A DNA stretch of 64,000 bases. It comes from Escherichia coli (GTDB taxonomy: Bacteria > Pseudomonadota > Gammaproteobacteria > Enterobacterales > Enterobacteriaceae). Where the stretch lies: assembly GCF_024223415.1 (NCBI RefSeq), contig NZ_CP100500.1; one strand, written 5' to 3'. The position numbers and the translations under genes are program-made. Below the pieces are notes generated by a model, which saw nothing but the letters and a program-made list of their open reading frames with translations, did no database searches and had not been told where the DNA came from. Below are positions 365 to 24,514 of this stretch, piece after piece; within the stretch, counting starts at the first letter, position 1, and every line of letters starts with the position of its first letter.

Positions 365-1978
365 ATGAGTCAGAAATATCTCATTCGCATCGCAGAGCTG
401 GAAAGATTGCTCTCTGAGCAGGCTGAAGCCCTCCGTCAGAAAGACCAGCAACTGAGTCTGGTTGAAGAGACGGAAGCCTTCCTGCGCTCTGCACTGACAC
501 GTGCCGAAGAAAAGATCGAAGAAGATGAACGGGAAATAGAACATCTGCGGGCTCAGATAGAAAAACTGCGCCGGATGCTGTTCGGTCCCCGTTCTGAAAA
601 ACTGCGTCGTGAAGTTGAACTGGCTGAGGCTCTGCTGAAACAACGTGAACAGGACAGCGATCGTTACAGTGGGCGGGAAGACGATCCTCAGGTTCCCCGC
701 CAGTTGCGACAGTCGCGCCATCGTCGTCCGTTACCGGCACACCTTCCCCGTGAAATACACCGCCTGGAGCCAGAAGAAAGCTGTTGCCCGGAGTGTGGCG
801 GTGAGCTGGATTATCTGGGGGAAGTCAGCGCTGAACAGCTGGAACTGGTGAGCAGTGCCCTGAAAGTGATCCGCACAGAACGGGTAAAAAAAGCCTGTAC
901 AAAATGTGACTGTATTGTTGAAGCACCGGCGTCGTCCCGCCCGATAGAGCGTGGTATCGCGGGCCCCGGATTACTTGCCCGCGTGTTAACGGGAAAATAC
1001 TGCGAACATCTGCCACTGTATCGTCAGAGTGAAATCTTTGCCCGCCAGGGTGTCGAACTGAGCCGGGCCTTACTCTCCAACTGGGTTGACGCGTGCTGCC
1101 AGTTAATGACACCGGTGAATGATGCCCTGTACCGTTATGTAATGAACACCCGCAAGGTTCACACTGATGACACACCGGTAAAGGTACTGGCACCGGGTCA
1201 GAAAAAGGCGAAAACAGGGCGTATCTGGACGTATGTCCGGGATGATCGCAATGTGGGTTCGTCATCTCCTCCAGCGGTCTGGTTCGCGTACTCGCCGAAC
1301 CGGCAGGGGAAACACCCGGAGCAACACCTCCGCCCCTTCCGGGGTATCCTGCAGGCGGATGCGTTCACAGGTTACGACAGGTTGTTCAGTGCAGAACGTG
1401 AAGGTGGTGCACTGACAGAAGTTGCGTGCTGGGCCCATGCCCGGCGAAAAATCCACGATGTATACATCAGCAGCAAAAGTGCGACGGCAGAAGAAGCCCT
1501 GAAGCGAATCAGTGAACTGTACGCCATCGAGGATGAAATACGGGGATTAGCGGAGTCAGAGCGTCTTGCCGTCAGGCAGCAGCGAAGCAAAGTGTTACTG
1601 ACGTCGCTGCATGAATGGATGGTGGAGAAGAATGGTACGCTGTCGAAAAAATCCAGACTGGGCGAAGCGTTCAGCTATGTACTGAATCAGTGGGATGCCC
1701 TCTGTTATTACAGTGATGACGGTCTGGCGGAGGCGGATAATAATGCTGCGGAAAGAGCGCTTCGTGCAGTCTGTCTCGGAAAGAAAAACTTTATGTTCTT
1801 TGGCAGCGATCACGGCGGCGAGCGTGGAGCACTGTTGTACGGGCTGATCGGCACCTGCCGTCTGAACGGTATCGATCCGGAAGCGTATCTGCGCCATATC
1901 CTGAGCGTACTGCCGGAATGGCCTTCCAACCGAGTTGATGAACTCCTGCCATGGAACGTAGTACTCACCAATAAATAA
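365..1978 (+). CDS. tnpC: IS66-family transposase TnpC
   Basis: 537 aa ORF with leucine-zipper-like N-terminus, CxxC...CxxC zinc-finger region and DDE region; paralogous to 6850..8454 and 44049..45587. Confidence 0.93.
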   Translation: MSQKYLIRIAELERLLSEQAEALRQKDQQLSLVEETEAFLRSALTRAEEKIEEDEREIEHLRAQIEKLRRMLFGPRSEKLRREVELAEALLKQREQDSDRYSGREDDPQVPRQLRQSRHRRPLPAHLPREIHRLEPEESCCPECGGELDYLGEVSAEQLELVSSALKVIRTERVKKACTKCDCIVEAPASSRPIERGIAGPGLLARVLTGKYCEHLPLYRQSEIFARQGVELSRALLSNWVDACCQLMTPVNDALYRYVMNTRKVHTDDTPVKVLAPGQKKAKTGRIWTYVRDDRNVGSSSPPAVWFAYSPNRQGKHPEQHLRPFRGILQADAFTGYDRLFSAEREGGALTEVACWAHARRKIHDVYISSKSATAEEALKRISELYAIEDEIRGLAESERLAVRQQRSKVLLTSLHEWMVEKNGTLSKKSRLGEAFSYVLNQWDALCYYSDDGLAEADNNAAERALRAVCLGKKNFMFFGSDHGGERGALLYGLIGTCRLNGIDPEAYLRHILSVLPEWPSNRVDELLPWNVVLTNK

Positions 1979-2084
1979 GCGTCAATACGGTGCTCCGTTG
2001 ACGCTTACCGTTTACCGGATAATGAGCGAAAATATCCTGTTGTTACATGACAAACCATCACGACCGCAGCGGGAACATAAAGGC

Positions 2085-2610
2085 CGAATATCGGTAAGGA
2101 AAGCGACCAGCGTTGATGTTCTGATGGCTTTGAGTTCGGTTGCGATGATGGCGAAAAAGTCCGGGTTACGTTCGCTCTGGACTGTTGCGATCGTGAAGCT
2201 ATCGACTGGGCATCCAATACGGGAGGTTACAATAAAGCGACAGTGCAGGATGTGATGTTAGGAGCGATAGAAAAACTCTTTGGCGATAAAGTACCGGAAC
2301 AGTCCATCCGGTGGTTGACAGATAACGGTTCAGCGTATAGAGCGCATGAAACACGGCAGTTCGCCAGAGAGTTGGATCTGGAGCCCTGCACAACGGCAAT
2401 CAGCAGCTCTCAGAGTAATGGAATGGCAGAAAGGTTAGTGAAAACGATGAAGGAAGACTACATTGCGTTCATACAGAAACCGAATGTAATAACGGCATTG
2501 CATAACCTTGCATAGGCGTTCGAGAATTACAATGAGAACCACCCGCATAGTGCGTTAGGTTATCTCTCACCACGGGAATATCGATGTCAGCGGATAACGT
2601 CACCTTAGAT
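2085..2610 (+). pseudogene. IS3-family (IS2-group) transposase OrfB C-terminal remnant
   Basis: Translation ...[24 protein letters not shown]...[25 protein letters not shown]...[12 protein letters not shown]... aligns with IS2 InsD (15776..16681) but has an internal stop and frame change and no N-terminal half. Confidence 0.7.
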
Positions 2611-2784
2611 GTAGCAGTTGCCAAACAGTGACTCAAGGGCAGGCTTACCGCATACACTGACACTTAGCGGATCGACAGAATATTATTAACAGTTCATCAC
2701 TGAACGCTACATAATCAGAGTTGCATAAATAAAATGTTATGTTATAACATTTTAATACCGACATATGTTTTCGGATGTATATGA

Positions 2785-4755
2785 ATGTATATGAATGTAA
2801 TCAGAACTGTCATTTGTACATTAATTATAGTCCCGGTGGGACTACAGGCAGCGACCAGTCATTCTTCTATGGCTAAAGATACAATCACCATTGTCGCGAC
2901 AGGAAATCAGAACACGGTATTTGAAACGCCGTCGATGGTCAGTGTCGTCACGAATGACACACCGTGGAGTCAGAATGCGGTTACATCGGCCGGCATGCTG
3001 AAAGGTGTTGCCGGTCTCAGCCAGACTGGTGCAGGACGGACCAATGGGCAGACCTTTAATCTACGCGGCTATGACAAAAGCGGGGTACTTGTTCTTGTTG
3101 ACGGCGTCCGCCAACTTAGTGACATGGCAAAAAGCAGTGGCACTTATCTGGATCCGGCTCTTGTCAAACGTATCGAAGTTGTCCGCGGGCCAAACTCCAG
3201 TCTGTACGGCAGTGGCGGGCTGGGAGGTGTAGTGGACTTCAGAACTGCCGATGCAGCAGATTTCCTTCCCCCCGGAGAGACAAACGGTTTAAGTCTGTGG
3301 GGAAATATTGCCAGTGGTGACCACAGCACAGGCTCGGGGCTCACCTGGTTCGGTAAAACCGGAAAAACAGATGCGCTCCTTTCTGTCATTATGCGTAAAA
3401 GAGGTAATATCTATCAAAGTGATGGTGAGCGCGCACCTAACAAGGAAAAACCTGCAGCCCTGTTTGCGAAAGGCTCTGTCGGTATAACAGACAGTAACAA
3501 AGCAGGTGCCAGCTTGCGTCTCTACCGGAATAACACCACTGAACCGGGCAATCCCACTCAGACACATGGTGACAGCGGCCTGCGTGACAGAAAAACAGTA
3601 CAAAATGACGTACAGTTCTGGTACCAGTACGCTCCTGTGGATAACAGCCTCATCAATGTACAGTCAACGTTATATCTCAGTGATATCACTATCAAGACAA
3701 ACGGTCACAACAAAACGGCAGAATGGAGAAACAACAGAACCTCCGGTGTTAATGTTGTCAACAGGAGTCATACTCTGATTTTTCCGGGAGCCCATCAGTT
3801 AAGTTATGGCGCTGAATATTACCGTCAGCAGCAGAAGCCAGAAGGCTCTGCCACACTATATCCGGAAGGAAATATTGACTTTACATCGTTGTATTTCCAG
3901 GATGAAATGACAATGAAAAGCTACCCTGTTAACATTATCGTCGGTTCCCGCTATGACCGGTACAAGAGCTTCAATCCCCGTGCCGGAGAACTGAAAGCCG
4001 AACGCCTGTCCCCAAGGGCGGCGATTTCAGTCTCACCGACAGACTGGCTGATGATGTACGGCTCCATATCCTCTGCATTCCGAGCGCCCACAATGGCAGA
4101 AATGTACAGGGATGATGTACATTTTTACCGCAAGGGTAAACCCAATTACTGGGTTCCTAACCTTAATCTGAAACCAGAAAATAACATCACCCGTGAGATT
4201 GGCGCAGGTATTCAACTGGATGGCCTGCTTACAGACAATGACCGGCTGCAGTTAAAAGGCGGATATTTCGGAACGGATGCCAGAAACTATATTGCCACAC
4301 GCGTGGATATGAAACGGATGCGTTCTTATTCTTATAATGTATCCCGGGCCCGTATCTGGGGATGGGATATGCAGGGAAATTACCAGTCTGATTATGTTGA
4401 CTGGGTGCTTTCTTATAACCGGACGGAAAGTATGGATGCCAGCAGCAGGGAATGGCTGGGCTCCGGCAATCCTGACACACTTATCAGTGACATCAGCATA
4501 CCTGTTGGTCATAGAGGCGTTTATGCCGGATGGCGTGCTGAACTTTCAGCATCAGCCACGCATGTGAAAAAAGGCGACTCCTATCAGGCTGGCTATGCCA
4601 TACATTCCTTTTCACTGTCTTATAAGCCTGTAAGTGTTAAAGGCTTTGAGGCGTCAGTAACTCTGGATAATGCCTTCAACAAGCTTGCCATGAATGGCAA
4701 AGGTGTGCCGCTTTCAGGCCGAACTGTCAGTCTTTATACCCGTTATCAGTGGTAA
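2785..4755 (+). CDS. TonB-dependent outer-membrane receptor, heme/hemoglobin type
   Basis: 656 aa; signal peptide, plug-domain motifs, FRAP motif (SAFRAPTMAEMY) and NPNL-like box (VPNLNLKPE), C-terminal aromatic residue (YQW). Confidence 0.85.
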   Translation: MYMNVIRTVICTLIIVPVGLQAATSHSSMAKDTITIVATGNQNTVFETPSMVSVVTNDTPWSQNAVTSAGMLKGVAGLSQTGAGRTNGQTFNLRGYDKSGVLVLVDGVRQLSDMAKSSGTYLDPALVKRIEVVRGPNSSLYGSGGLGGVVDFRTADAADFLPPGETNGLSLWGNIASGDHSTGSGLTWFGKTGKTDALLSVIMRKRGNIYQSDGERAPNKEKPAALFAKGSVGITDSNKAGASLRLYRNNTTEPGNPTQTHGDSGLRDRKTVQNDVQFWYQYAPVDNSLINVQSTLYLSDITIKTNGHNKTAEWRNNRTSGVNVVNRSHTLIFPGAHQLSYGAEYYRQQQKPEGSATLYPEGNIDFTSLYFQDEMTMKSYPVNIIVGSRYDRYKSFNPRAGELKAERLSPRAAISVSPTDWLMMYGSISSAFRAPTMAEMYRDDVHFYRKGKPNYWVPNLNLKPENNITREIGAGIQLDGLLTDNDRLQLKGGYFGTDARNYIATRVDMKRMRSYSYNVSRARIWGWDMQGNYQSDYVDWVLSYNRTESMDASSREWLGSGNPDTLISDISIPVGHRGVYAGWRAELSASATHVKKGDSYQAGYAIHSFSLSYKPVSVKGFEASVTLDNAFNKLAMNGKGVPLSGRTVSLYTRYQW

Positions 4756-12787: not shown

Positions 12788-13777
12788 ATGAAAATTAGGT
12801 TATTTATCCATTCGTTATTTTATTCATCAGTTCTGGTGACTTTGCTTATCAATAGCGTAAATGCCGCAGAAAAAGTGACATTAAAATTGGCACACAACCT
12901 TGAACGCAGTCATGTTGTACACCAGACTTTTGAACATCTGGCAAACGAGGTAAAACAACTTTCTAATGGCAATATTGTCATTCGTATATACCCCAGTAGC
13001 CAGATGGGTAATGCGCGAGAAACTATGGAGTTGTTACAAAATGGCGCACTGGATATGACCAAAGGTTCCGCCAGTGATCTGGAGTCTTTTGATAATATTT
13101 ATGCTATCTATAATTTGCCGTTCTTATTTAAAGATCAGGCGCACTTCAACAAAGTGGTTTTTGGTGAAGTTGGTAAAGAAATTATGGACTCAACAAAAGA
13201 CAAAGGCTTTTTTGCTTTATCAGCTTATGTAGCGGGTACTCGCAGTTTCTATGCGAAAAAACCGATTACTAAGCCAGAAGATCTTAAAGGGCTGAAAATT
13301 CGTGTTCAGCCAAGCCCGACCACCATCAAAATGATTGAACTGATGGGGGGCTCACCCACTCCAATTTCATTTGGCGAAGTTTATACTGCGATGCAGCAAG
13401 GTGTAGTAGATGGCGCAGAAAATAACGTGCCTTCCTGGGTGCAGACTCGACATATCGAAATTGCCAAAGTCTTTTCTGAAGATGAACATGCCTCAATTCC
13501 TGACTTTTTGGTTATCTCCACCAAAACATGGAATAAATTAACCCCAGAACAGCAACAAATCCTCGAAACAGCGGCGAAGAAATCCGAAGCTTATCAACAA
13601 AAATTGTGGGAAAAAATTGACGCTGACACACGTGCTCAGGCGAAAGCTATGGGTGGTGAAATCGTTAAGGTTGATAAAGCCCCATTCCGTGCCGCAGTTC
13701 AACCTCTGTTTGACGACTTCAAAAAAGATCCAAAACAAGCTGCTTTGTTAGAGAAATTCGACAACGCTGCTCAATAA
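12788..13777 (+). CDS. TRAP transporter substrate-binding protein (DctP family)
   Basis: 329 aa, signal peptide, DctP-like sequence; first of three co-directional TRAP genes; substrate unknown. Confidence 0.85.
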   Translation: MKIRLFIHSLFYSSVLVTLLINSVNAAEKVTLKLAHNLERSHVVHQTFEHLANEVKQLSNGNIVIRIYPSSQMGNARETMELLQNGALDMTKGSASDLESFDNIYAIYNLPFLFKDQAHFNKVVFGEVGKEIMDSTKDKGFFALSAYVAGTRSFYAKKPITKPEDLKGLKIRVQPSPTTIKMIELMGGSPTPISFGEVYTAMQQGVVDGAENNVPSWVQTRHIEIAKVFSEDEHASIPDFLVISTKTWNKLTPEQQQILETAAKKSEAYQQKLWEKIDADTRAQAKAMGGEIVKVDKAPFRAAVQPLFDDFKKDPKQAALLEKFDNAAQ

Positions 13778-13783
13778 TATTTC

Positions 13784-13807
13784 GGGCCAGTCTCTGGCCC
13801 TGATTTT
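13784..13807 (+). terminator. Stem-loop followed by T-run after the TRAP binding-protein gene
   Basis: GGGCCAGTCTCTGGCCC followed by TGATTTT. Confidence 0.4.
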
Positions 13808-13812
13808 CCAGG

Positions 13813-14325
13813 ATGCTTACAATGATATTTAACCGCCTGAAACTTGCGGTAGACCGCGTCATTGCCGCGTTTTCTGTCGCCGTCATGCTTGCTCTGGTTG
13901 TATGCGTAGTCTGGCAAGTATTTAGCCGCTACGTACTTAACCAGCCAAGTACATTAACCGATGAGCTGGCACGCTTTTTGATGATCTGGGTAGGATTATT
14001 AGGTGCTGCATATACCGTCGGCGCGCAGAGACATCTCTCTATCGATTTATTTGCTCTCGCCCTGAATAAGCGCAAGCAATTACTTCTTAGTATAGTCATT
14101 AACATTCTCATTTTAGGTTTTGCCGGTTCGGTCATTGTGACTGGTGGCCTGAAATTAATTGATAAAACACTGGCAACATCACAGGTATCTGCCGCGATGC
14201 AAATACCGATGGGATACGTATATATCATTCTGCCATTAAGTGGATTGGTGATGATGTTTTATGCCTTGTGTTTTATTAATCAAAGCATTCAACAACTGAA
14301 ACAACCTGCGCAGGAGGCCAGTTAA
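13813..14325 (+). CDS. TRAP transporter small permease (DctQ family)
   Basis: 170 aa hydrophobic protein with four predicted TM segments between the DctP and DctM genes. Confidence 0.8.
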   Translation: MLTMIFNRLKLAVDRVIAAFSVAVMLALVVCVVWQVFSRYVLNQPSTLTDELARFLMIWVGLLGAAYTVGAQRHLSIDLFALALNKRKQLLLSIVINILILGFAGSVIVTGGLKLIDKTLATSQVSAAMQIPMGYVYIILPLSGLVMMFYALCFINQSIQQLKQPAQEAS

Positions 14326-15626
14326 TGGATAGTTATATCGCGCTTACACTATTTGGCTGTTTTTTTGTGCTGGTCTTTATTGGTGTGCCCATTTCGTTCT
14401 CAATCGGTATTGCGACTGTAGCTTCAATGCTGTTGATGTTTCCCTGGGATATCGCGGCAATCACTGTTTCGCAACGATTGGCTAATGGACTGGATAACTT
14501 TGCCCTGTTGGCAATCCCCTTTTTCATCTTTGCCGGAACACTGATGAACAGCGGCGGTATTGCGATACGTTTGATTAACCTCGCCCAGGTAATGGTTGGC
14601 CGCGTTCCTGGTTCGCTTGGTCATGTGAACGTCCTGGCGAATATGATGTTTGGTTCCATTTCTGGTTCAGCCGTTGCGGCAGCTGCTGCCGTTGGTGGCA
14701 CACTGAATCCCATTCAGACCAAAGAAGGTTATGATCCGGCATTTTCTACCGCTGTAAACGTCTCATCTTGTATTACTGGATTACTGATACCGCCCTCAAA
14801 CGTGTTAATTGTATTTTCCCTGACAGCTGGCGGCGTTTCTGTAGCATCGCTATTTATGGCGGGATATTTGCCAGGGATCTTAATGGGTCTCGCGGTAATG
14901 ATAGTCTGCGGCATTATTGCTAAACGCCGTGGCTACCCACTTTCAGAAAGAGCAACCTTTGCTCAGGCATGTAAAGCGTTTCTGGATGCCTTACCAAGTT
15001 TGCTTCTGGTGTTCATTGTAATGGGCGGCATTCTGGGCGGCATTTTTACCGCAACTGAAGCGTCAGCAATTGCCGTGGTCTACACATTTATTCTCTCGGT
15101 GCTGATTTACCGGGAAGTAAAATGGCGCGATTTACCCAAACTGATTCTGGAGTCGGTTGTTACCACTTCGATTGTATTACTGTTGATCGGTTTTTCCGTG
15201 GGCATGTCCTGGGCAATGACCAATGCTGATATTCCTTATATGATCAGCGACGCGTTGATGGGGATTTCTGATAACCCACTGGTCATATTGCTGCTGATTA
15301 ATATCGTCTTATTAATTGTCGGCATCTTTATGGACATGACACCGGCTGTACTAATCTTCACACCAATCTTCTTGCCGATTGCACAAGAGCTGGGAATGGA
15401 TCCGGTACATTTCGGTATTATGATGGTGGCCAACCTTTGTATTGGGCTGTTAACACCGCCGGTGGGTAGTGCGCTATTTGTTGGTTGTTCTATTTCAGGT
15501 GTGAAGATTCAACATTTGCTTAGACCATTGCTACCCTTTTATACAGCATTGCTAGTCGCATTGATGATGATCACTTACATTCCACAAATCTCTTTATTTA
15601 TCCCACAATTTCTAGGGCTGATGTAA
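14325..15626 (+). CDS. TRAP transporter large permease (DctM family)
   Basis: 433 aa polytopic membrane protein; start overlaps the dctQ stop. Confidence 0.85.
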   Translation: MDSYIALTLFGCFFVLVFIGVPISFSIGIATVASMLLMFPWDIAAITVSQRLANGLDNFALLAIPFFIFAGTLMNSGGIAIRLINLAQVMVGRVPGSLGHVNVLANMMFGSISGSAVAAAAAVGGTLNPIQTKEGYDPAFSTAVNVSSCITGLLIPPSNVLIVFSLTAGGVSVASLFMAGYLPGILMGLAVMIVCGIIAKRRGYPLSERATFAQACKAFLDALPSLLLVFIVMGGILGGIFTATEASAIAVVYTFILSVLIYREVKWRDLPKLILESVVTTSIVLLLIGFSVGMSWAMTNADIPYMISDALMGISDNPLVILLLINIVLLIVGIFMDMTPAVLIFTPIFLPIAQELGMDPVHFGIMMVANLCIGLLTPPVGSALFVGCSISGVKIQHLLRPLLPFYTALLVALMMITYIPQISLFIPQFLGLM

Positions 15627-15775: not shown

Positions 15776-16681
15776 CTATATTTCCAGACACCTGTTATCA
15801 CTTAACCCATTACTGGCTTGCTGCCGTAGATATTCCCGTGGCGAGCGATAACCCAGTGCACTATGCGGATGCCATTCGTTATAATGCTCGAACGCCTCTG
15901 CAAGGTTCTTTGCTGCCGTTAACCCGTCTGGTTTAGGCATGATACTGATGTAGTCACGCTTTATCGTTTTCACGAAGCTCTCTGCTATGCCGTTACTCTC
16001 CGGACTCCGCACCGCCGTGCTCTTCGGTTCAAGCCCCAACATCCGGGCAAACTGCCGTGTTTCATTAGCCCGGTAGCATGAACCATTATCCGTCAGCCAC
16101 TCTACTGGAGACGCCGGAAGCTCGTTGCCGAAGCGGCGTTCCACCGCTCCTGGCATGACGTCCTGTACTGTTTCACTGTTGAAGCCGCCCGTAGTGACCG
16201 CCCAGTGCAGTGCCTCACGGTCACAGCAGTCCAGCGCGAACGTGACTCGCAGTTTTTCTCCGTTATCACAGCGGAACTCGAACCCGTCAGAGCACCATCG
16301 CTGATTACTTTCTTTCACAGCCACTCTGCCTGTATGTGCCCGTTTCGATGGCGGTACAGCAGGTTTTCGCTCAAGCAACAGCGCATTCTGGCGCATGATC
16401 CGGTAAACACGTTTGGCATTGATCGCAGGCATACCATCAAGTTCTGCCTGTCTGCGAAGCAGCGCCCATACCCGACGATAACCATACGTGGGCAGCTCTC
16501 CGATAACATGGTGTATACGGAGAAGCACATCCGTATCATCTGAGTGACGGCTGCGGCGACCATCTTTCCAGTCATCGGTTCGTCTGAGAATGACGTGCAA
16601 CTGCGCACGCGACACCCGGAGACAACGGCTGACTAAGCTTACTCCCCATCCCCGGGCAATAAGGGCGCGTGCGCTATCCAC
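15776..16681 (-). CDS. insD: IS2 transposase InsD (OrfB)
   Basis: 301 aa matching IS2 InsD. Confidence 0.92.
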
Positions 16682-17004
16682 TTTTTTGCCCGTCCATATT
16701 CAACGGCTTCTTTGAGGAGTTCATTTTCCATCGTTTTCTTGCCGAGCAGGCGCTGGAGTTCTTTAATCTGCTTCATGGCGGCAGCAAGTTCAGAGGCAGG
16801 AACAACCTGTTCTCCGGCGGCGACAGCAGTAAGACTTCCTTCCTGGTATTGCTTACGCCAGAGAAATAACTGGCTGGCTGCTACACCATGTTGCCGGGCA
16901 ACGAGGGAGACCGTCATCCCCGGTTCAAAGCTCTGCTGAACAATTGCGATCTTTTCCTGTGTGGTAAGCCGTCTGCGTTTCTCCGGTCCTAAGACATCAA
17001 TCAT
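16639..17004 (-). CDS. insC: IS2 InsC (OrfA)
   Basis: [53 protein letters not shown]... Confidence 0.9.
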
Positions 17005-17096
17005 CTGCTCTCCAATGACTAGTCTAAAAACTAGTATTAAGACTATCACTTATTTAAGTGATATTGGTTGTCTGGAGATTCAGGGGGCCAGTCTAT

Positions 17097-17420
17097 TCGG
17101 CAGCACTGTTGCCCTGTATCGAACAGGCCAGAGAGGATGTCCGTACCCTGCGTCATCTGCAGCTTCTGCACCAGAACCGGTGAATATCACTCACCACGCT
17201 TCATTACCCTGACGCCAGCCTGAATACGGCTGGCGTTTTCGTTTATAAACCAAAAGGAAAAATGATGATGTCAGATACCACACTCTCCCGCCCGGAGGTG
17301 GTCAGCGGGCATACGGACGTTATCTATTCCACCTCAGTCTGCCACATTCTGGCTGTACGAAAGAGTACACTGTTGCCAATCGACACAATTATCCGGCATC
17401 AAGTGAGCGATATCAGTTAA
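17097..17420 (+). pseudogene. Truncated second copy of a CP4-like island segment (3' end of a small yeeW-like ORF plus 5' end of a DUF4942 gene)
   Basis: Homologous to the reverse complement of about 58900..59085: ...[21 protein letters not shown] and MMMSDTTLSRPEVVSGHTDVIYST... versus MSDITVSRPETLNGHTDVICST... at 58934; abuts the IS2 end. Confidence 0.7.
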
Positions 17421-17820
17421 CCGATATAGATGGGGAAGATGCTTTTATCCGGATTGGATCTATCGCGATGGTGCGAGTACCACTTGATGCAATGGAGCCT
17501 GTCGAGGCAGATGACGAGTAACAGAGCTCGGTATCTCAATCAGGACCTGATTGTCCTGGTTCGATGCCGAAAACCAGTGATTTTTCGTGTTGGTATCTGT
17601 GTTGGTATAGGATGGTGTTGTTTATTATTAACAATTTTAAATCATGAGGTTAAATCGCATGTTTGAGTCAGGCCTTCGCATCAATATCAAAACAATCAAT
17701 AAATAAGTCCTTTAACCTAGCCACGACCAATCATTGATCAACCACGAAATCCTCTCCGAAACACAGTCCCAATCCCTAAACCCTACGCTCAACATCGAAA
17801 CCCGCTTATCACCATCCCCC

Positions 17821-18690
17821 TCATCCCCTGAACACCTCCCGCCGGTGCCACGCCACAAACCCCTCCTGGGGATAGCATTCTTTCCCCATCGGCAAGGTAA
17901 TCGGCTTACCATCAAAATCCCAGAACAACCTGCCAACGATGCCTCCGCCGTTCACCGCCGGCGAAACCTGGATGCGCATATCCTCATCCAGACCAATGGA
18001 TCCTTTATCAAAATCCTTATGGTGAATCGCGCAGAGCGCCAGGCCGTTAGGGATTTCGCAGGGGCCGCCGTGCTGCTTCCACTTGATATGGGCCGCTTCC
18101 AGGGCGACGGAGGTATTATCATGGCGCATATTGAAGCCGCAGATAGCGCACTCATAGTTATAGGCGCGCAGCACCTGCTGGCGAAAATGCGGGTCGCGCT
18201 CTTTGCGGATCTGCAGCAGATCAAACCCCATCTCTTCAGCCAGTTCTTCCTGAATACTCTCCGGAAAGTGCGCCTCAAGGATCTGATGGGCGAGGGTATT
18301 GATCAGCTTCTTATTTCTGTTAAGTAACGCAAAATGCTGCTCATCAAAGCCGCCGGCGACGTGGCAGAGCTCCAGCTCTTTGCCGGGCGGCTGTCGGCTG
18401 CCCTGGGTTGAGCACTGTTCGCTGTTGTGTAGCTCCCAGAAGCCGTCGCCTTTCAGGCGCCAGAAGGGCATGTCCGGCCGGTACTGGCGGCGCTGCGGGC
18501 CAAAGCGTTCCAGCAGGCTATGCAGCTCATCACGTATCTCCGAGGCGTAGTCGAACATCCGCGCATGGCCGCGCTGGTATTGCGAGAGGACGTACAGCAG
18601 CAATAGTGGTTTATGCGGCGCACGCTGTTCGCCTTTGCGCCAGATGGTGATGTTCTCGATCGCGTGTTGCAGGGTCGTGCTGGAGGGCAT
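17821..18690 (-). CDS. HNH endonuclease with an N-terminal putative modified-DNA-binding domain (candidate type IV restriction enzyme)
   Basis: 290 aa from the ATG at 18690; C-terminal HNH motif ...YNYECAICGFNMRHDNTSVALEAAHIKWKQHGGPCEIPNGLALCAIHHKDFDKG...; N-terminal about 170 aa (...APHKPLLLLYVLSQYQRG...FWRLKGDGFWEL...) recalled as resembling sulfur-binding-domain-HNH proteins. Confidence 0.6.
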   Translation of the reverse strand: MPSSTTLQHAIENITIWRKGEQRAPHKPLLLLYVLSQYQRGHARMFDYASEIRDELHSLLERFGPQRRQYRPDMPFWRLKGDGFWELHNSEQCSTQGSRQPPGKELELCHVAGGFDEQHFALLNRNKKLINTLAHQILEAHFPESIQEELAEEMGFDLLQIRKERDPHFRQQVLRAYNYECAICGFNMRHDNTSVALEAAHIKWKQHGGPCEIPNGLALCAIHHKDFDKGSIGLDEDMRIQVSPAVNGGGIVGRLFWDFDGKPITLPMGKECYPQEGFVAWHRREVFRG

Positions 18691-18869
18691 AGCGTTACAT
18701 TGGCAGCTAAATAAATGCGATGATGCTCGCAAAATCCTTGCCGATCAACCTACCAGATGCGGCGATTCTACGTGGATCGCGATTTAATTATCACTGCCAG
18801 TTATTTGTTCGAAAAGACCATAGCTTTCTATTTATACTCAAGCTTCGCGCCATCAGATAGCTATGTCTT

Positions 18870-19508
18870 ATGAAAAAACTACCGGACCATTTATCCAGGG
18901 AATGCATCATCGCCGCCATTCGCGCTTACGATGCAGGCGTTGCGCATCAGTTTAAAAGCGCGCGTCTGTATGAGATCGAGTTTGAGGGGCGTCGGTATCC
19001 TTCAAAAGCCATCGTCGGGTTAGCGGCCACGCTTGCGACGGGAACGGAATTTACCCCGGCGGATTTCAGCGGGGGGATTAAATCAAAATGCGTGCGTCTG
19101 TTACTGGAGCAAGGATTTACGATCGCGTCGCAGGGCGCTGGCGATGACGAGGTTGCGCTTTTCCCCGATGAGGGGCAGACGACCATGGAGTACGTGGAAG
19201 GGGCGGCGTTGCAGGTGGTGGTCAATCGCTATGAGCGCGACCGTCAGGCTCGTCAGGCGGCGCTTCGCCTGCATGGCTGCCAGTGTCAGGTATGCGGTCT
19301 GGATATGGCCAGCCGCTATGGCGATATCGGCCAGGGCTTTATCCATATCCACCATCTCATCCCGCTGGCCGGGATAAAGCAGGACTACCGCCTGAACCCT
19401 GAAACCGATCTGATCCCGGTATGTCCCAACTGCCATGCGATGCTGCACCGGCGAGATCCGCCGTTTACCCCCGAAGAGCTGAAGGCCCGGCTGCGCCCCA
19501 CAGACTGA
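18870..19508 (+). CDS. HNH endonuclease with a distinct N-terminal domain of unknown function
   Basis: 212 aa; C-terminal zinc-finger HNH ...CQCQVCGLDMASRYGDIGQGFIHIHHLIPLAG...PVCPNCHAMLH...; divergent from 17821..18690 across a 179-bp intergenic region. Confidence 0.6.
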   Translation: MKKLPDHLSRECIIAAIRAYDAGVAHQFKSARLYEIEFEGRRYPSKAIVGLAATLATGTEFTPADFSGGIKSKCVRLLLEQGFTIASQGAGDDEVALFPDEGQTTMEYVEGAALQVVVNRYERDRQARQAALRLHGCQCQVCGLDMASRYGDIGQGFIHIHHLIPLAGIKQDYRLNPETDLIPVCPNCHAMLHRRDPPFTPEELKARLRPTD

Positions 19509-19552: not shown

Positions 19553-19579
19553 CCCACGCTACCTTACCGGTAGCGTGGG
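19553..19579. terminator. Bidirectional stem-loop between convergent genes
   Basis: CCCACGCTACC-TTAC-CGGTAGCGTGGG between the stop at 19508 and the minus-strand stop at 19591. Confidence 0.5.
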
Positions 19580-19590
19580 CCCACTCTCTT

Positions 19591-21270
19591 TTACTTATCC
19601 CGCGTCTCGCCAGCCTCCCAGCTGTAGCTGCCATCGGCCGCTAAGCTATCGCCCAGCTCCTGATACTCGAACTGATAAAACTCAGCCTGGGTGCCGTACC
19701 CGGCGTAGTCTACCGCCGCCAGGCCGACGAACGCCCCGGTAAAGAACCCGCCGTAGCTCTGCAACACATAGTCATCGGACAGCACCGCGGCATCCAGCTG
19801 GACCGGGATCTCGGTGAACGTCACGCCATCGAAGCTGTATTCATAGCTGTAGGTCTGCTTGCGGACTTTGGTCCGGAACCAGACGTATTCCACGCCGTCC
19901 GGCACCTTGATGGCGTTATCTTTCAGGTACGACGTGTATTTCCCGCGGTTATTTTCGCCGACTTCGATGACCTTGCCGTTAATTTCATTCCAGGTCAGGA
20001 AGACGAAGCTCCAGTGGCGGTCGTTATAGTAATTCGTTAACCCGGCCATCTGCTGGTAGCTGAAGGGCTCGAATTTCACCTTCACCGCGGCGTCAAAATA
20101 GAAGGCCTGCCAGCGGCGGGCAATCAGCGACAGATCATGCGTATTGGCTAACGAGCCCTGGCCGATTAAGGTTAATTTGCCGTTACCGGTGGTGCCCATT
20201 TTGGCCGTAAACGGCACCCGCAGGGTATTCCAGTTCGGGTCGAGGGCTGGCGACGTAAAGTCATCCTGCTGGCTATTATCGCTGGCGCTTTCGGTGAAGA
20301 TGGCGTCTTTCGGTCCTTCGACGAAGGTTTTCCCGCCGTGACCGCCTTCAATACGCGGCCAGCCCTCGTCATCCCAGTACACTTTCTGGATCGCGGTTTC
20401 CCGGCCGAGGGTTGACCAGCCGCGCGGGTCGTAGATGGATTCCCCCGGGCGATTCCACGGCCGGGCGCAGAGCGAGGCGTAATACCATTCGCCTTCCGGG
20501 GTGGAGACCAGCGCGCCATGGCCCTGTTTCTGGATGTAGCTGTCCGGGGTGTCGACGTTGGTTAAGAACACGTCGCCCGGCTCGGTTTCAAAGCTGTCGG
20601 CCTCGAGGGTTTTCGACCGCGCCACCACCTCCTGGTGGGTAAACACGGTGCCGCCCTGGGCGGCAAACAGGTAGTAGTAGCCGTTCAGTTTATAGAGGTG
20701 CGGCCCCTCGACCAGCGCTACGGCGGTGCCGCGGTAGATGGTGCGCGCGGTTTCCGGCATTAACTTCAGCGTGTTGGTATCCAGCTCCGTTAAGGTAATG
20801 CCATCGAAGGGGTGATGGTACTCCCGGTGATCCCAGGTTTGCTGGACGATATATTTCCGGCCATCGTCGTCATGGAACAGCGAGGCGTCAAACCCGACTC
20901 CGTTCAGCTTGATCGGGTCGCTCCACGGGCCCCGAATATCCTTCGCGGTGGTCAGGTAGTTGGTCATGTCTTTGAAGGCGCCTTCGGTGACCTTCACATC
21001 GGTATACACCAACCAGAATTGCCCGTCGGCCCAGGAGAGCGCCGGCGCCCAAATGCCGCCGGAGGAGGGGTTGCCCTTCATGTCCAGCAGGGTGGTGGTG
21101 GAGAGCGGCGAAGGCAGCAGGTTCCAGTTTTTCAGGTCTTTCGACTCATGTAAACGCACGCCCGGAAACCACTCAAACGTCGAGTTGGCAATATAGTACG
21201 TATCCTCGACGCGAATAATACTGGGGTCGGCATTAAAGCCGCGTAATATCGGGTTTTGAATAAGTGACAT
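19591..21270 (-). CDS. xynB: Glycoside hydrolase family 43 beta-xylosidase (XynB-like)
   Basis: 559 aa; N-terminal GH43 five-bladed propeller motifs (...FNADPSIIRVEDTYYIANSTFEWFPGV...) plus C-terminal beta-sandwich; high GC. Confidence 0.85.
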   Translation of the reverse strand: MSLIQNPILRGFNADPSIIRVEDTYYIANSTFEWFPGVRLHESKDLKNWNLLPSPLSTTTLLDMKGNPSSGGIWAPALSWADGQFWLVYTDVKVTEGAFKDMTNYLTTAKDIRGPWSDPIKLNGVGFDASLFHDDDGRKYIVQQTWDHREYHHPFDGITLTELDTNTLKLMPETARTIYRGTAVALVEGPHLYKLNGYYYLFAAQGGTVFTHQEVVARSKTLEADSFETEPGDVFLTNVDTPDSYIQKQGHGALVSTPEGEWYYASLCARPWNRPGESIYDPRGWSTLGRETAIQKVYWDDEGWPRIEGGHGGKTFVEGPKDAIFTESASDNSQQDDFTSPALDPNWNTLRVPFTAKMGTTGNGKLTLIGQGSLANTHDLSLIARRWQAFYFDAAVKVKFEPFSYQQMAGLTNYYNDRHWSFVFLTWNEINGKVIEVGENNRGKYTSYLKDNAIKVPDGVEYVWFRTKVRKQTYSYEYSFDGVTFTEIPVQLDAAVLSDDYVLQSYGGFFTGAFVGLAAVDYAGYGTQAEFYQFEYQELGDSLAADGSYSWEAGETRDK

Positions 21271-21328: not shown

Positions 21329-22783
21329 CTACACGCGGATCTCATCCAGCTGACGGTTGATGTCGGTAACATGTTTATCGGAGATCGGATAAACCTGGAT
21401 AATCACCATCGAAATAGCGGCCAGCGCGATCGGGATCCACACCGCGGTCATAATGATCCCGTCGATGGCGCTGGCGCTCTGCACGGCGCCGCTTTCATTA
21501 AAGCCATACACCGCCAGCAGCCACAGCGGGATCGCGCCGCCGATGGTGAAGCCGATCTTGAAGAAGAGTCCCATAATGGCATTGATAATGGCGGCATTGC
21601 GTTTGCCAGATTTTAATTCGCCGTACGCGATGACTTCCGGTACCAGCGCCCACATAAAGCCGGTGGCGGAGGTTAAGCCCCACTGTTTAATAAAGGTGGC
21701 GATGTAGGCCAGCCACAGGGCGTCGTGCATCCCTTCGCGGGACCAGACGTAGGTCAGCAGTTCGCCGACGATAAACATGGCGAGGAACAGATGGAAGAAG
21801 CCTTTTTTACCAAAGATTTTTTTCAGTTTCGGCCAGAAAATCGGGAAGGCGATGCCGGGAATAGACGCGACGAGACCCACCGCGCCCATCCATTCGGAGT
21901 GGCCGACGACGTACTGGTTGAAGAAGCCGTTAACAGTGTTCATGAAGAACATGAAGGTAAAGGCCAGCATAAAGAACATGCCCAGAATAACCAGCGGGCG
22001 GTTATGTCGGAGCTCGTGGAAAAGGTCGGTGGTTTTGACGTTGGCGGTCTGCTCGGCGGTCGCGACAACGCGTTCTTTGGTGAATTTATAACAGATAAAC
22101 AGAGCCACCGCGCCGATGATCATATAGATGGCGTACACGCCAAACCAGGCGTAATTTGCCGACGGATCGGCATAATTCCCCAGATTCAGCTCAAGGCCAA
22201 AAAAGCCGGTGTCTTTCAGGCTGCGATCTTTCGGCGCCGCCATCTGCACAAACATCGGGAACAGGGTATAGACCAGCAGGTTGGCGCTGTTGGCCAGCAT
22301 CATGCGGGTACTGGTCAGTTTATCGATCGATTCCGGGTCGCGGGTCAGCGACGCATTCAGCGAGCCATAGGGAATATTGACTAAGGAATAAACCAGGTCC
22401 AGCGCCAGATAAATAATAAAGGCGAAAGCCACCGAACCTTTCACTCCGGGGATGGGCGCGAACAGTAATGCCGAGAGGATCACCAGCGGCACGCCGGCTC
22501 GTAACAGCCACGGACGATATTTCCCTGCCTTCGAGGTTCGTTTATCCACGTAGGTGCCGACCATCGGATCCCAAAACACGTTAATTATGCGGACAAAAAG
22601 AAAAATAAAGCCTGCCGTTGCCGTGCTGATGGTATTTACCGTCAGCATATGCAAAGCCAGAAAACCCCCAATTGTGCCGAAAACCAGGTTTTGCGCAAAG
22701 TCGCCCATGCCATAACCAATTCGTTCTCCACGGGTTAATTTATGATATTCATCATGCCGACTGTGCATTATGTTTTTACTCAT
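21329..22783 (-). CDS. Glycoside-pentoside-hexuronide (GPH) family cation symporter, xyloside transporter-like
   Basis: Polytopic membrane protein with GPH-family N-terminus (...RIGYGMGDFAQNLVFGTIGGF...); start chosen at MSKNIM; co-directional with the xylosidase. Confidence 0.8.
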   Translation of the reverse strand: MSKNIMHSRHDEYHKLTRGERIGYGMGDFAQNLVFGTIGGFLALHMLTVNTISTATAGFIFLFVRIINVFWDPMVGTYVDKRTSKAGKYRPWLLRAGVPLVILSALLFAPIPGVKGSVAFAFIIYLALDLVYSLVNIPYGSLNASLTRDPESIDKLTSTRMMLANSANLLVYTLFPMFVQMAAPKDRSLKDTGFFGLELNLGNYADPSANYAWFGVYAIYMIIGAVALFICYKFTKERVVATAEQTANVKTTDLFHELRHNRPLVILGMFFMLAFTFMFFMNTVNGFFNQYVVGHSEWMGAVGLVASIPGIAFPIFWPKLKKIFGKKGFFHLFLAMFIVGELLTYVWSREGMHDALWLAYIATFIKQWGLTSATGFMWALVPEVIAYGELKSGKRNAAIINAIMGLFFKIGFTIGGAIPLWLLAVYGFNESGAVQSASAIDGIIMTAVWIPIALAAISMVIIQVYPISDKHVTDINRQLDEIRV

Positions 22784-23194
22784 TCTAAGCAGACTCCGGT
22801 TTGTTTTGTGTAGGTGAAACACTTTCTGACACAGTTGACATGGAAGAATCTATTACGTTTTTAAATTAAGTAATTATGTTTTTTTACTTCTGTGATCCTC
22901 GAAGCAAAGGCCTGTATCACCTGCGTTGAGCCGCCATCCGCCGCTAATTTTTTGGCAGACAGGCAATGTGACAAAACCGGCATTTTAATTCGCTATGCCC
23001 ACCTGAATTCCCCAGGAAGTGTACTCTATACGCGCGCGAAGCGAGATATTTAAAATAGTTTTATTTGCGAGATGGCTCACATTTGAGCATTTTCTCAATC
23101 GCTGAGTGAAATAACGTAATTGAGCAACCGACGATGAGAATACACGATGTGTCACAGTTGTTAATTTTCGGCTTCCTCAATTTCGGAGTTCATC

Positions 23195-24514
<1,320 letters not shown>

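Follow-up and report, generated by a model that had tools for sequence, protein, structure and literature searches.

A stretch of 64,000 nucleotides from Escherichia coli (NCBI RefSeq assembly GCF_024223415.1, contig NZ_CP100500.1), referred to here as the window, includes two divergently oriented genes for HNH nucleases: gene A at 17821..18690 on the minus strand and gene B at 18870..19508 on the plus strand, with an intergenic spacer of 179 bp (18691-18869). An earlier note, made from the sequence of the window, proposed that they form a two-gene modification-dependent restriction module. Do the two proteins work as a unit, or is each of them a restriction nuclease in its own right? The analysis described here favors the second answer. 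The locus probably consists of two clustered, independent, single-polypeptide HNH nucleases of a type IV-like or type IIM-like kind that are located in a defense hot spot. The A-B pair is a real, inherited cassette, and each of its genes is viable and maintained on its own.

Gene A and the phosphorothioate-dependent enzymes

Both open reading frames (ORFs) are intact and coincide exactly with the genes and the spacer described in the earlier note, and the Pfam families HNH_2 and HNH were recognized in the respective products. Searches with tblastn found a single copy of each gene in the window. The N-terminal parts of the two proteins, about 160 amino acids in A and about 90 amino acids followed by a disordered linker of about 25 in B, are unrelated to each other, as had been proposed. 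Each protein joins this additional domain to an HNH nuclease, which is the layout typical of type IV enzymes.

Gene A codes for 289 amino acids counted from the annotated ATG. Its product was compared to the NCBIfam model NF045808, which describes phosphorothioate (PT) DNA restriction endonucleases, and reached 438.3 bits where the curated cutoff is 180; the match covers amino acids 6-288 of the protein and positions 2-284 of the 284 in the profile. The suggestion that the N-terminus resembles the sulfur-binding domain (SBD) of PT-dependent enzymes was borne out. The first ~155 residues matched the structures of the ScoMcrA SBD (5zmo, 5zmm and 5zmn, with E values from 1e-6 to 7e-6) as well as the SBD-only chains 7cc9, 7ccj and 7ccd (E ~6e-5) in phmmer searches, and the precomputed Pfam domains of close homologs are PF26340 (DNA-SBD_ScoMcrA) and PF13391 (HNH_2). 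The SBD spans approximately amino acids 1-160 (18211..18690, minus strand). The HNH_2 nuclease domain and a C-terminal extension occupy amino acids 165-289 (17824..18198, minus strand), with the PF13391 match itself at amino acids 181-235 (E 1e-8). The zinc and catalytic residues C181xxC184, H201, N215, C220 and H223/H224 are invariant across nine enterobacterial alleles, and so are the motifs KPLLLL and PFW. The His-Arg/Lys pair that contacts sulfur in ScoMcrA is represented in A by H26-K27. On an identical stretch in E. coli H8, RefSeq names A a "phosphorothioated DNA-binding restriction endonuclease" and B an "HNH endonuclease". Judged by its sequence, the product of gene A belongs along its full length to the PT-dependent SBD-HNH restriction enzymes of the EcoWI/SprMcrA type. 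NCBI has already annotated it correctly, and cleavage of PT-DNA and restriction of dnd+ DNA are predicted for it from the family.

The experimentally characterized enzyme that A resembles is EcoWI, an E. coli SBD-HNH protein of 33.4 kDa that acts as a homodimer and is a PT-dependent type IIM/IV enzyme (Lutz et al. 2020, PMC7461809). EcoWI cuts GpsAAC/GpsTTC at N7/N6 in the presence of Mg2+ and, when it is the only gene expressed from a plasmid, abolishes transformation by dnd+ plasmids in vivo (PMC7461809). Gene A shares with EcoWI the two-domain architecture, the size, the enterobacterial host group, the NCBIfam model, the motifs KPxxLL, PF and W, the CxxC...CxxH zinc site and the H-N-H residues, a likeness of architecture, motifs, model and mass and not a direct sequence comparison. 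Neither an accession nor a sequence for EcoWI was found in the two EcoWI papers or the supplement examined. The mass computed for the product of gene A is 33.41 kDa, compared to 33.4 kDa for EcoWI and 33.14 kDa for the common E. coli allele, an agreement that hints at EcoWI being this very allele but does not prove it. Gene A is orthologous to a characterized and commercially used PT-dependent enzyme and is nothing new in kind. Since EcoWI restricts PT-DNA as a single gene, A is probably not the dependent half of a two-gene module, and this part of the bipartite reading is not supported.

Gene B and its head domain

Gene B codes for 212 amino acids. The earlier note was unable to place its N-terminal domain, which can now be identified as ScoMcrA_N (PF26345), a named domain without assigned function that is referred to here as the head domain (amino acids 1-90; 18870..19139, plus strand). 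Amino acids 7-86 of B aligned to residues 6-92 of ScoMcrA in a phmmer search, and a profile built from 23 homologs matched the ScoMcrA head with an E value of 3e-9. An AlphaFold2 model of the head alone was confident (pLDDT 87, pTM 0.80). Residues H26, F28, K46, F66 and G69 of the head are invariant. The C-terminal part is an HNH nuclease domain with a four-cysteine zinc site (amino acids 119-212; 19224..19505, plus strand), with the Pfam HNH match (PF01844) at amino acids 139-195. Residues C139, C142, C185, C188, H161, H162, N187, H189 and H193 are invariant in 26 homologs. Homologs of B are labeled PF26345 plus PF01844; several of them are named "restriction enzyme A" by the Joint Genome Institute.

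The HNH domain of B resembles that of EcoKMcrA (6ghc, E 1e-4), the HNH enzyme of prophage e14 that is dependent on 5-methylcytosine (5mC) or 5-hydroxymethylcytosine (5hmC). The two proteins have the same layout, a small N-terminal domain followed by a C-terminal zinc-HNH domain. However, B is outside the EcoKMcrA family because it lacks the N-terminal 5mC/5hmC-binding domain of that enzyme. A point of reference for both proteins is ScoMcrA from Streptomyces coelicolor (head-SBD-SRA-HNH; PDB 5zmm), in which the head is flexibly attached and has no assigned function. The SBD of A and the head of B are each homologous to their ScoMcrA counterparts, and both proteins end in an HNH domain. Unlike in ScoMcrA, head and SBD are distributed here over two proteins, each with an HNH domain of a different Pfam family, and the SRA domain is missing.

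When the head domain was used in an exhaustive profile search, 3431 clusters at 50% identity were collected, with proteins of ~100-1570 amino acids. Among the 87 longer proteins analyzed with Pfam, the partners of the head were HNH (35), HNH_2 (20), EVE (15), AAA_5 (8), nSTAND3 (7), NOV_C (6), SAD_SRA (3) and DUF3427 (3), and also AspBHI_N, MrcB_N and NUDIX. Matches in AFDB included McrB-like, DUF3578, YDG, DUF3883 and ZorC-EH proteins. This variety of type IV partners indicates that the head is an N-terminal module that combines promiscuously within modification-dependent restriction architectures. A phmmer search with the A SBD found no match among the head-domain proteins, and in ten head-X-HNH_2 proteins the NF045808 match was limited to the HNH part, with an SBD between the two domains in none. 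Proteins of the ScoMcrA type are the only head-SBD fusions observed. The domain compositions suggest that the head is usually added to a known reader, and in B it appears as the sole partner of the nuclease. A literature search for PF26345 or ScoMcrA_N returned nothing on function, and the PHROGs database gave only generic HNH matches, with a phage-specific family for neither N-terminal domain. Most likely, the head of B brings the HNH domain to DNA. That the target of B is a second type of modified DNA is a guess because ScoMcrA_N has no function assigned to it. From these comparisons, gene B is probably an independent, type IV-like nuclease of a named but uncharacterized family.

The two genes as a pair and as single genes

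The distribution of the two genes was determined in a set of 5426 complete E. coli genomes using the E. coli-type alleles, with near full length defined as at least 80% of the length. Traces of A were found in 4859 genomes and near full-length copies in 1706; the corresponding numbers for B were 3151 and 1239. The two genes were found together in 158. Two states are typical of E. coli. In one, as in O157:H7 and EC1515, only A is present and has a nanM fragment and a type II Zorya system as neighbors; in the other, B is accompanied by a 50-amino acid stub of A beside CP4-type/IS2 DNA. In other enterobacteria, A alone was found in Salmonella, Enterobacter hormaechei, Buttiauxella and Lelliottia, and B alone in Pantoea (next to the Mokosh gene mkoC), Escherichia sp. 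ESNIH1 (next to a PDC-S02 Mrr-like gene), E. hormaechei (on a conjugative element), Atlantibacter and Pseudescherichia. K. pneumoniae ATCC 13883 has a 97% identical B with an insertion sequence (IS) fragment in the place expected for A. In the non-enterobacterial loci examined, B is alone: none of ten neighboring ORFs from nine loci of distant B homologs encodes an SBD-HNH protein, and the ORFs tested include two Dcm-type methyltransferases. In a metagenomic genome, a 368-amino acid protein is encoded divergently at 297 bp from a B homolog (L086/L087, 3597-4703, minus strand); it had no matches in Pfam, NCBIfam or PADLOC.

Selection on the two genes was estimated from synonymous and nonsynonymous substitution rates (dS and dN). 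Synonymous sites are saturated between the pair alleles (dS>1.3), and dN/dS is ~0.05 for A and ~0.1-0.17 for B. When A-only or B-only loci were included, the values were 0.10 and 0.17. Saturation combined with low dN/dS indicates that the adjacency is old and that both genes have been maintained. Each gene is commonly intact without the other, and both are under purifying selection. The idea of an obligate pair was therefore given up, whereas the pair itself stood: A and B do not co-occur wherever either is found, although order and orientation are conserved where both are present. A comparative-genomics paper on dnd and PT and a review of restriction-modification (R-M) systems do not discuss the A-B pair.

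The spacer holds an 18-bp palindrome at 18715-18732, 24 bp upstream of the ATG of gene A, with the consensus TTGCGAT[G/C]ATGCTCGCAA; the window has ATGCGA in one arm. A longer ORF for gene A that starts with TTG extends to 18732. The palindrome has a single match within the window and is invariant in every A allele aligned, including those of A-only loci, the 50-amino acid stubs and a fragment of 65% identity, where the remaining flanking sequence could not be aligned. Since it is kept at A-only loci, stubs and the fragment, it tracks A and not the pair. Possible roles are those of an operator or of a hairpin in the 5′ untranslated region. A CRP-like site or a promoter element was considered and discarded, as the palindrome matches either consensus poorly.

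Several observations weigh against two fully independent nucleases. The divergent A-B order, with a spacer of ~137-180 bp, is kept in E. coli, Citrobacter, K. pneumoniae/quasipneumoniae and K. aerogenes. The E. coli pair with the 137-bp spacer adjoins McrBC, a type I R-M system and nanS/nanM/fim genes; in Citrobacter there are two lineages, one beside prpR and IclR/GH43; in K. pneumoniae/quasipneumoniae the pair lies between GH43/major facilitator superfamily (MFS) genes and type VI secretion/Mokosh-like genes; and in K. aerogenes it is followed by a third small nuclease (Mrr_N-HNH) and HsdR. Recurrence of the cassette in Escherichia, Citrobacter and Klebsiella with different flanks indicates that the pairing is real and old, and the conserved divergent arrangement could reflect selection for linkage. 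The presence of head and SBD in one chain of ScoMcrA is a domain-fusion hint of a functional connection. As for A itself, the Tyr-Pro that contacts sulfur in ScoMcrA is replaced by M74-P75, which is invariant in all nine enterobacterial alleles aligned, and the likeness to EcoWI is an indirect one, as described above.

These observations raise the possibility of a ScoMcrA split into two cooperating polypeptides, where A would sense PT and B would add a second nuclease and/or sensing surface, the two acting as a heteromer or sequentially on PT- or doubly modified DNA. Preservation of the divergent cassette in three genera despite saturated dS, the intergenic region common to A and B and the combination of head, SBD (with SRA) and HNH on the single chain of ScoMcrA speak for it. 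Nevertheless, this arrangement is unlikely: EcoWI functions alone both in vivo and in vitro (PMC7461809), only one of the two genes is intact in most E. coli genomes, A alone or B alone is found across many genera, and the conserved palindrome follows A. In addition, the head associates with many readers and effectors and not with the SBD specifically, and NF045808 recognized only the HNH part of the ten head-X-HNH_2 proteins. A more specific version, in which the head is an unrecognized sensor of DNA modification or DNA structure and B extends or gates the PT-dependent restriction by A within such a split ScoMcrA, is likewise improbable.

Another possibility is that B does not depend on modification. 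It would then be parked beside A either as the cleaving component of a conventional, methylation-protected restriction system or as an HNH enzyme, sequence-specific or non-specific, with another role. Distant B homologs do adjoin Dcm-type cytosine-5 methyltransferases in two unrelated loci (L081, 3575-4648; L011, 1835-4369), one of them fused to an N6-methyltransferase-like region. Such neighbors would be odd for a 5mC-dependent enzyme and argue against a need for modified DNA. On the other hand, the genes next to B include no methyltransferase, neither in the window nor in the loci of E. coli, Citrobacter and Klebsiella, the head is fused overwhelmingly to type IV modules, and an active, unprotected, non-specific nuclease would be toxic, which makes this explanation quite unlikely. 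It is very improbable that either gene, or both, has lost its activity and survives as a relic of an eroding island. The homologous E. coli locus is indeed heavily eroded, with 50-amino acid stubs, fragments and IS insertions, and the numbers of A-type traces (4859) and near full-length copies (1706) point in the same direction. However, the ORFs of the window are intact, all catalytic and zinc residues are present, dN/dS is 0.05-0.17 and identity to the Klebsiella orthologs is 97%.

The reading that we prefer, two independent nucleases, implies the following sequence of events. By analogy to its family, an A homodimer would bind the sulfur of an Rp-phosphorothioate link through the N-terminal SBD, and the HNH domains would cut both strands a few base pairs away, so that incoming PT-modified (dnd+) DNA is destroyed. 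B would act alone, with the ScoMcrA-type head most likely recruiting the HNH domain to DNA. The pairing may result from shared ancestry and clustering of defense genes; joint regulation from the divergent promoter region may contribute. A and B would have traveled together as a small cassette, the window copy being a Klebsiella allele that entered with the xyloside genes.

Origin of the window copy and its surroundings

The product of gene A has 97% identity with its Klebsiella orthologs; for the common E. coli allele, the value is 78-79%. The Klebsiella contig L095 aligned to the window by blastn with 98.3% identity over 4.9 kb, from at least 22690 down to 17793, a segment that spans the GH43 and MFS genes. 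The left edge of this block, 17793..17820, is located just past the stop codon of gene A and extends 28 bp beyond it, and similarity to the common E. coli CP4-type flank stops near 17684. Klebsiella genomes share the order MFS-GH43-B-A. Since the match to Klebsiella ends just past A, the A-B pair forms one end of a block of Klebsiella chromosome that includes the xyloside genes. The comparison indicates an inter-genus transfer that brought a Klebsiella xyloside-utilization block, ending in the nuclease pair, into an E. coli island. The window is part of an E. coli chromosome. The 3-kb stretch around the pair was found with 99.8-100% identity in 11 of the 5426 complete E. coli genomes, which, together with the 98% identity to Klebsiella, agrees with the earlier description of the pair as accessory cargo.

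The flanks were also recognized correctly in that description. On the left are IS2 (~15776-17049) and CP4-type remnant DNA (~17050-17700). On the right are a GH43 xylosidase gene (19591-21270), whose 3′ end is convergent with that of gene B, an MFS transporter gene (21329-22822) and a second, non-E. coli-type xylA (23195-24514). A GC-rich, terminator-like hairpin of 11 pairs (19553..19579) lies where these two genes, B and GH43, converge. In the spacer, sigma-70-like sites are directed toward A (18794-18765, minus strand) and toward B (18809-18838, plus strand); both are consensus matches only and constitute weak evidence for promoters. Rfam gave no RNA family matches between 17000 and 19800. 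Upstream of IS2, the regions 365-4755 and 12788-15626 include an IS66-family transposase, IS3 fragments, a TonB-dependent receptor and a TRAP transporter operon. This mosaic is not contiguous in any complete E. coli genome searched, and the best coverage by a single record was 66%.

In strain H8, the island is inserted at tRNA-Leu between the fim/nan and idn genes. H8 also has a second, E. coli-type B with a 50-amino acid A stub; a third A fragment, of 65% identity, lies beside an integrase fragment (L001, 5319-6255 and 30745-31410). These extra copies, among them remains of the native E. coli A/B locus, were left behind by repeated acquisitions at the tRNA-Leu island. That the window is co-linear with H8 and includes such additional relics was ruled out, as tblastn detected one copy per gene and the relics are found only in H8. 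In the common A-only configuration (L003/L004), the SBD-HNH gene abuts the nanM fragment and the zorA2-zorB2-zorE genes of the type II Zorya system, which identifies the fim/nan-proximal end of the tRNA-Leu (leuX) island as a defense hot spot. In K. aerogenes (L108-L110, 1760-4136), genes for Mrr_N-HNH, SBD-HNH and ScoMcrA_N-HNH proteins form a row directly beside the type I HsdR gene.

The mcrBC-hsd-mrr "immigration control region" of E. coli K-12 is a cluster of independent restriction genes. The A-B locus is similar in that unrelated restriction nucleases are found side by side at tRNA-linked islands, with McrBC, type I R-M, Zorya II and Mrr_N-HNH as neighbors in other strains. It differs in that two specific genes hold one fixed divergent arrangement across genera. 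If the A-B association is non-functional, the locus is a case of ordinary defense-gene clustering together with a transfer from Klebsiella to E. coli. The head domain occurs in thousands of clusters across bacteria, always in restriction-like architectures, and gene B is for this reason the part that deserves attention. B is close to the smallest protein in which the head is the only partner of a nuclease, which makes it a convenient object to test the function of the domain. If the head does act as a sensor, B would represent a type IV enzyme of a new kind.

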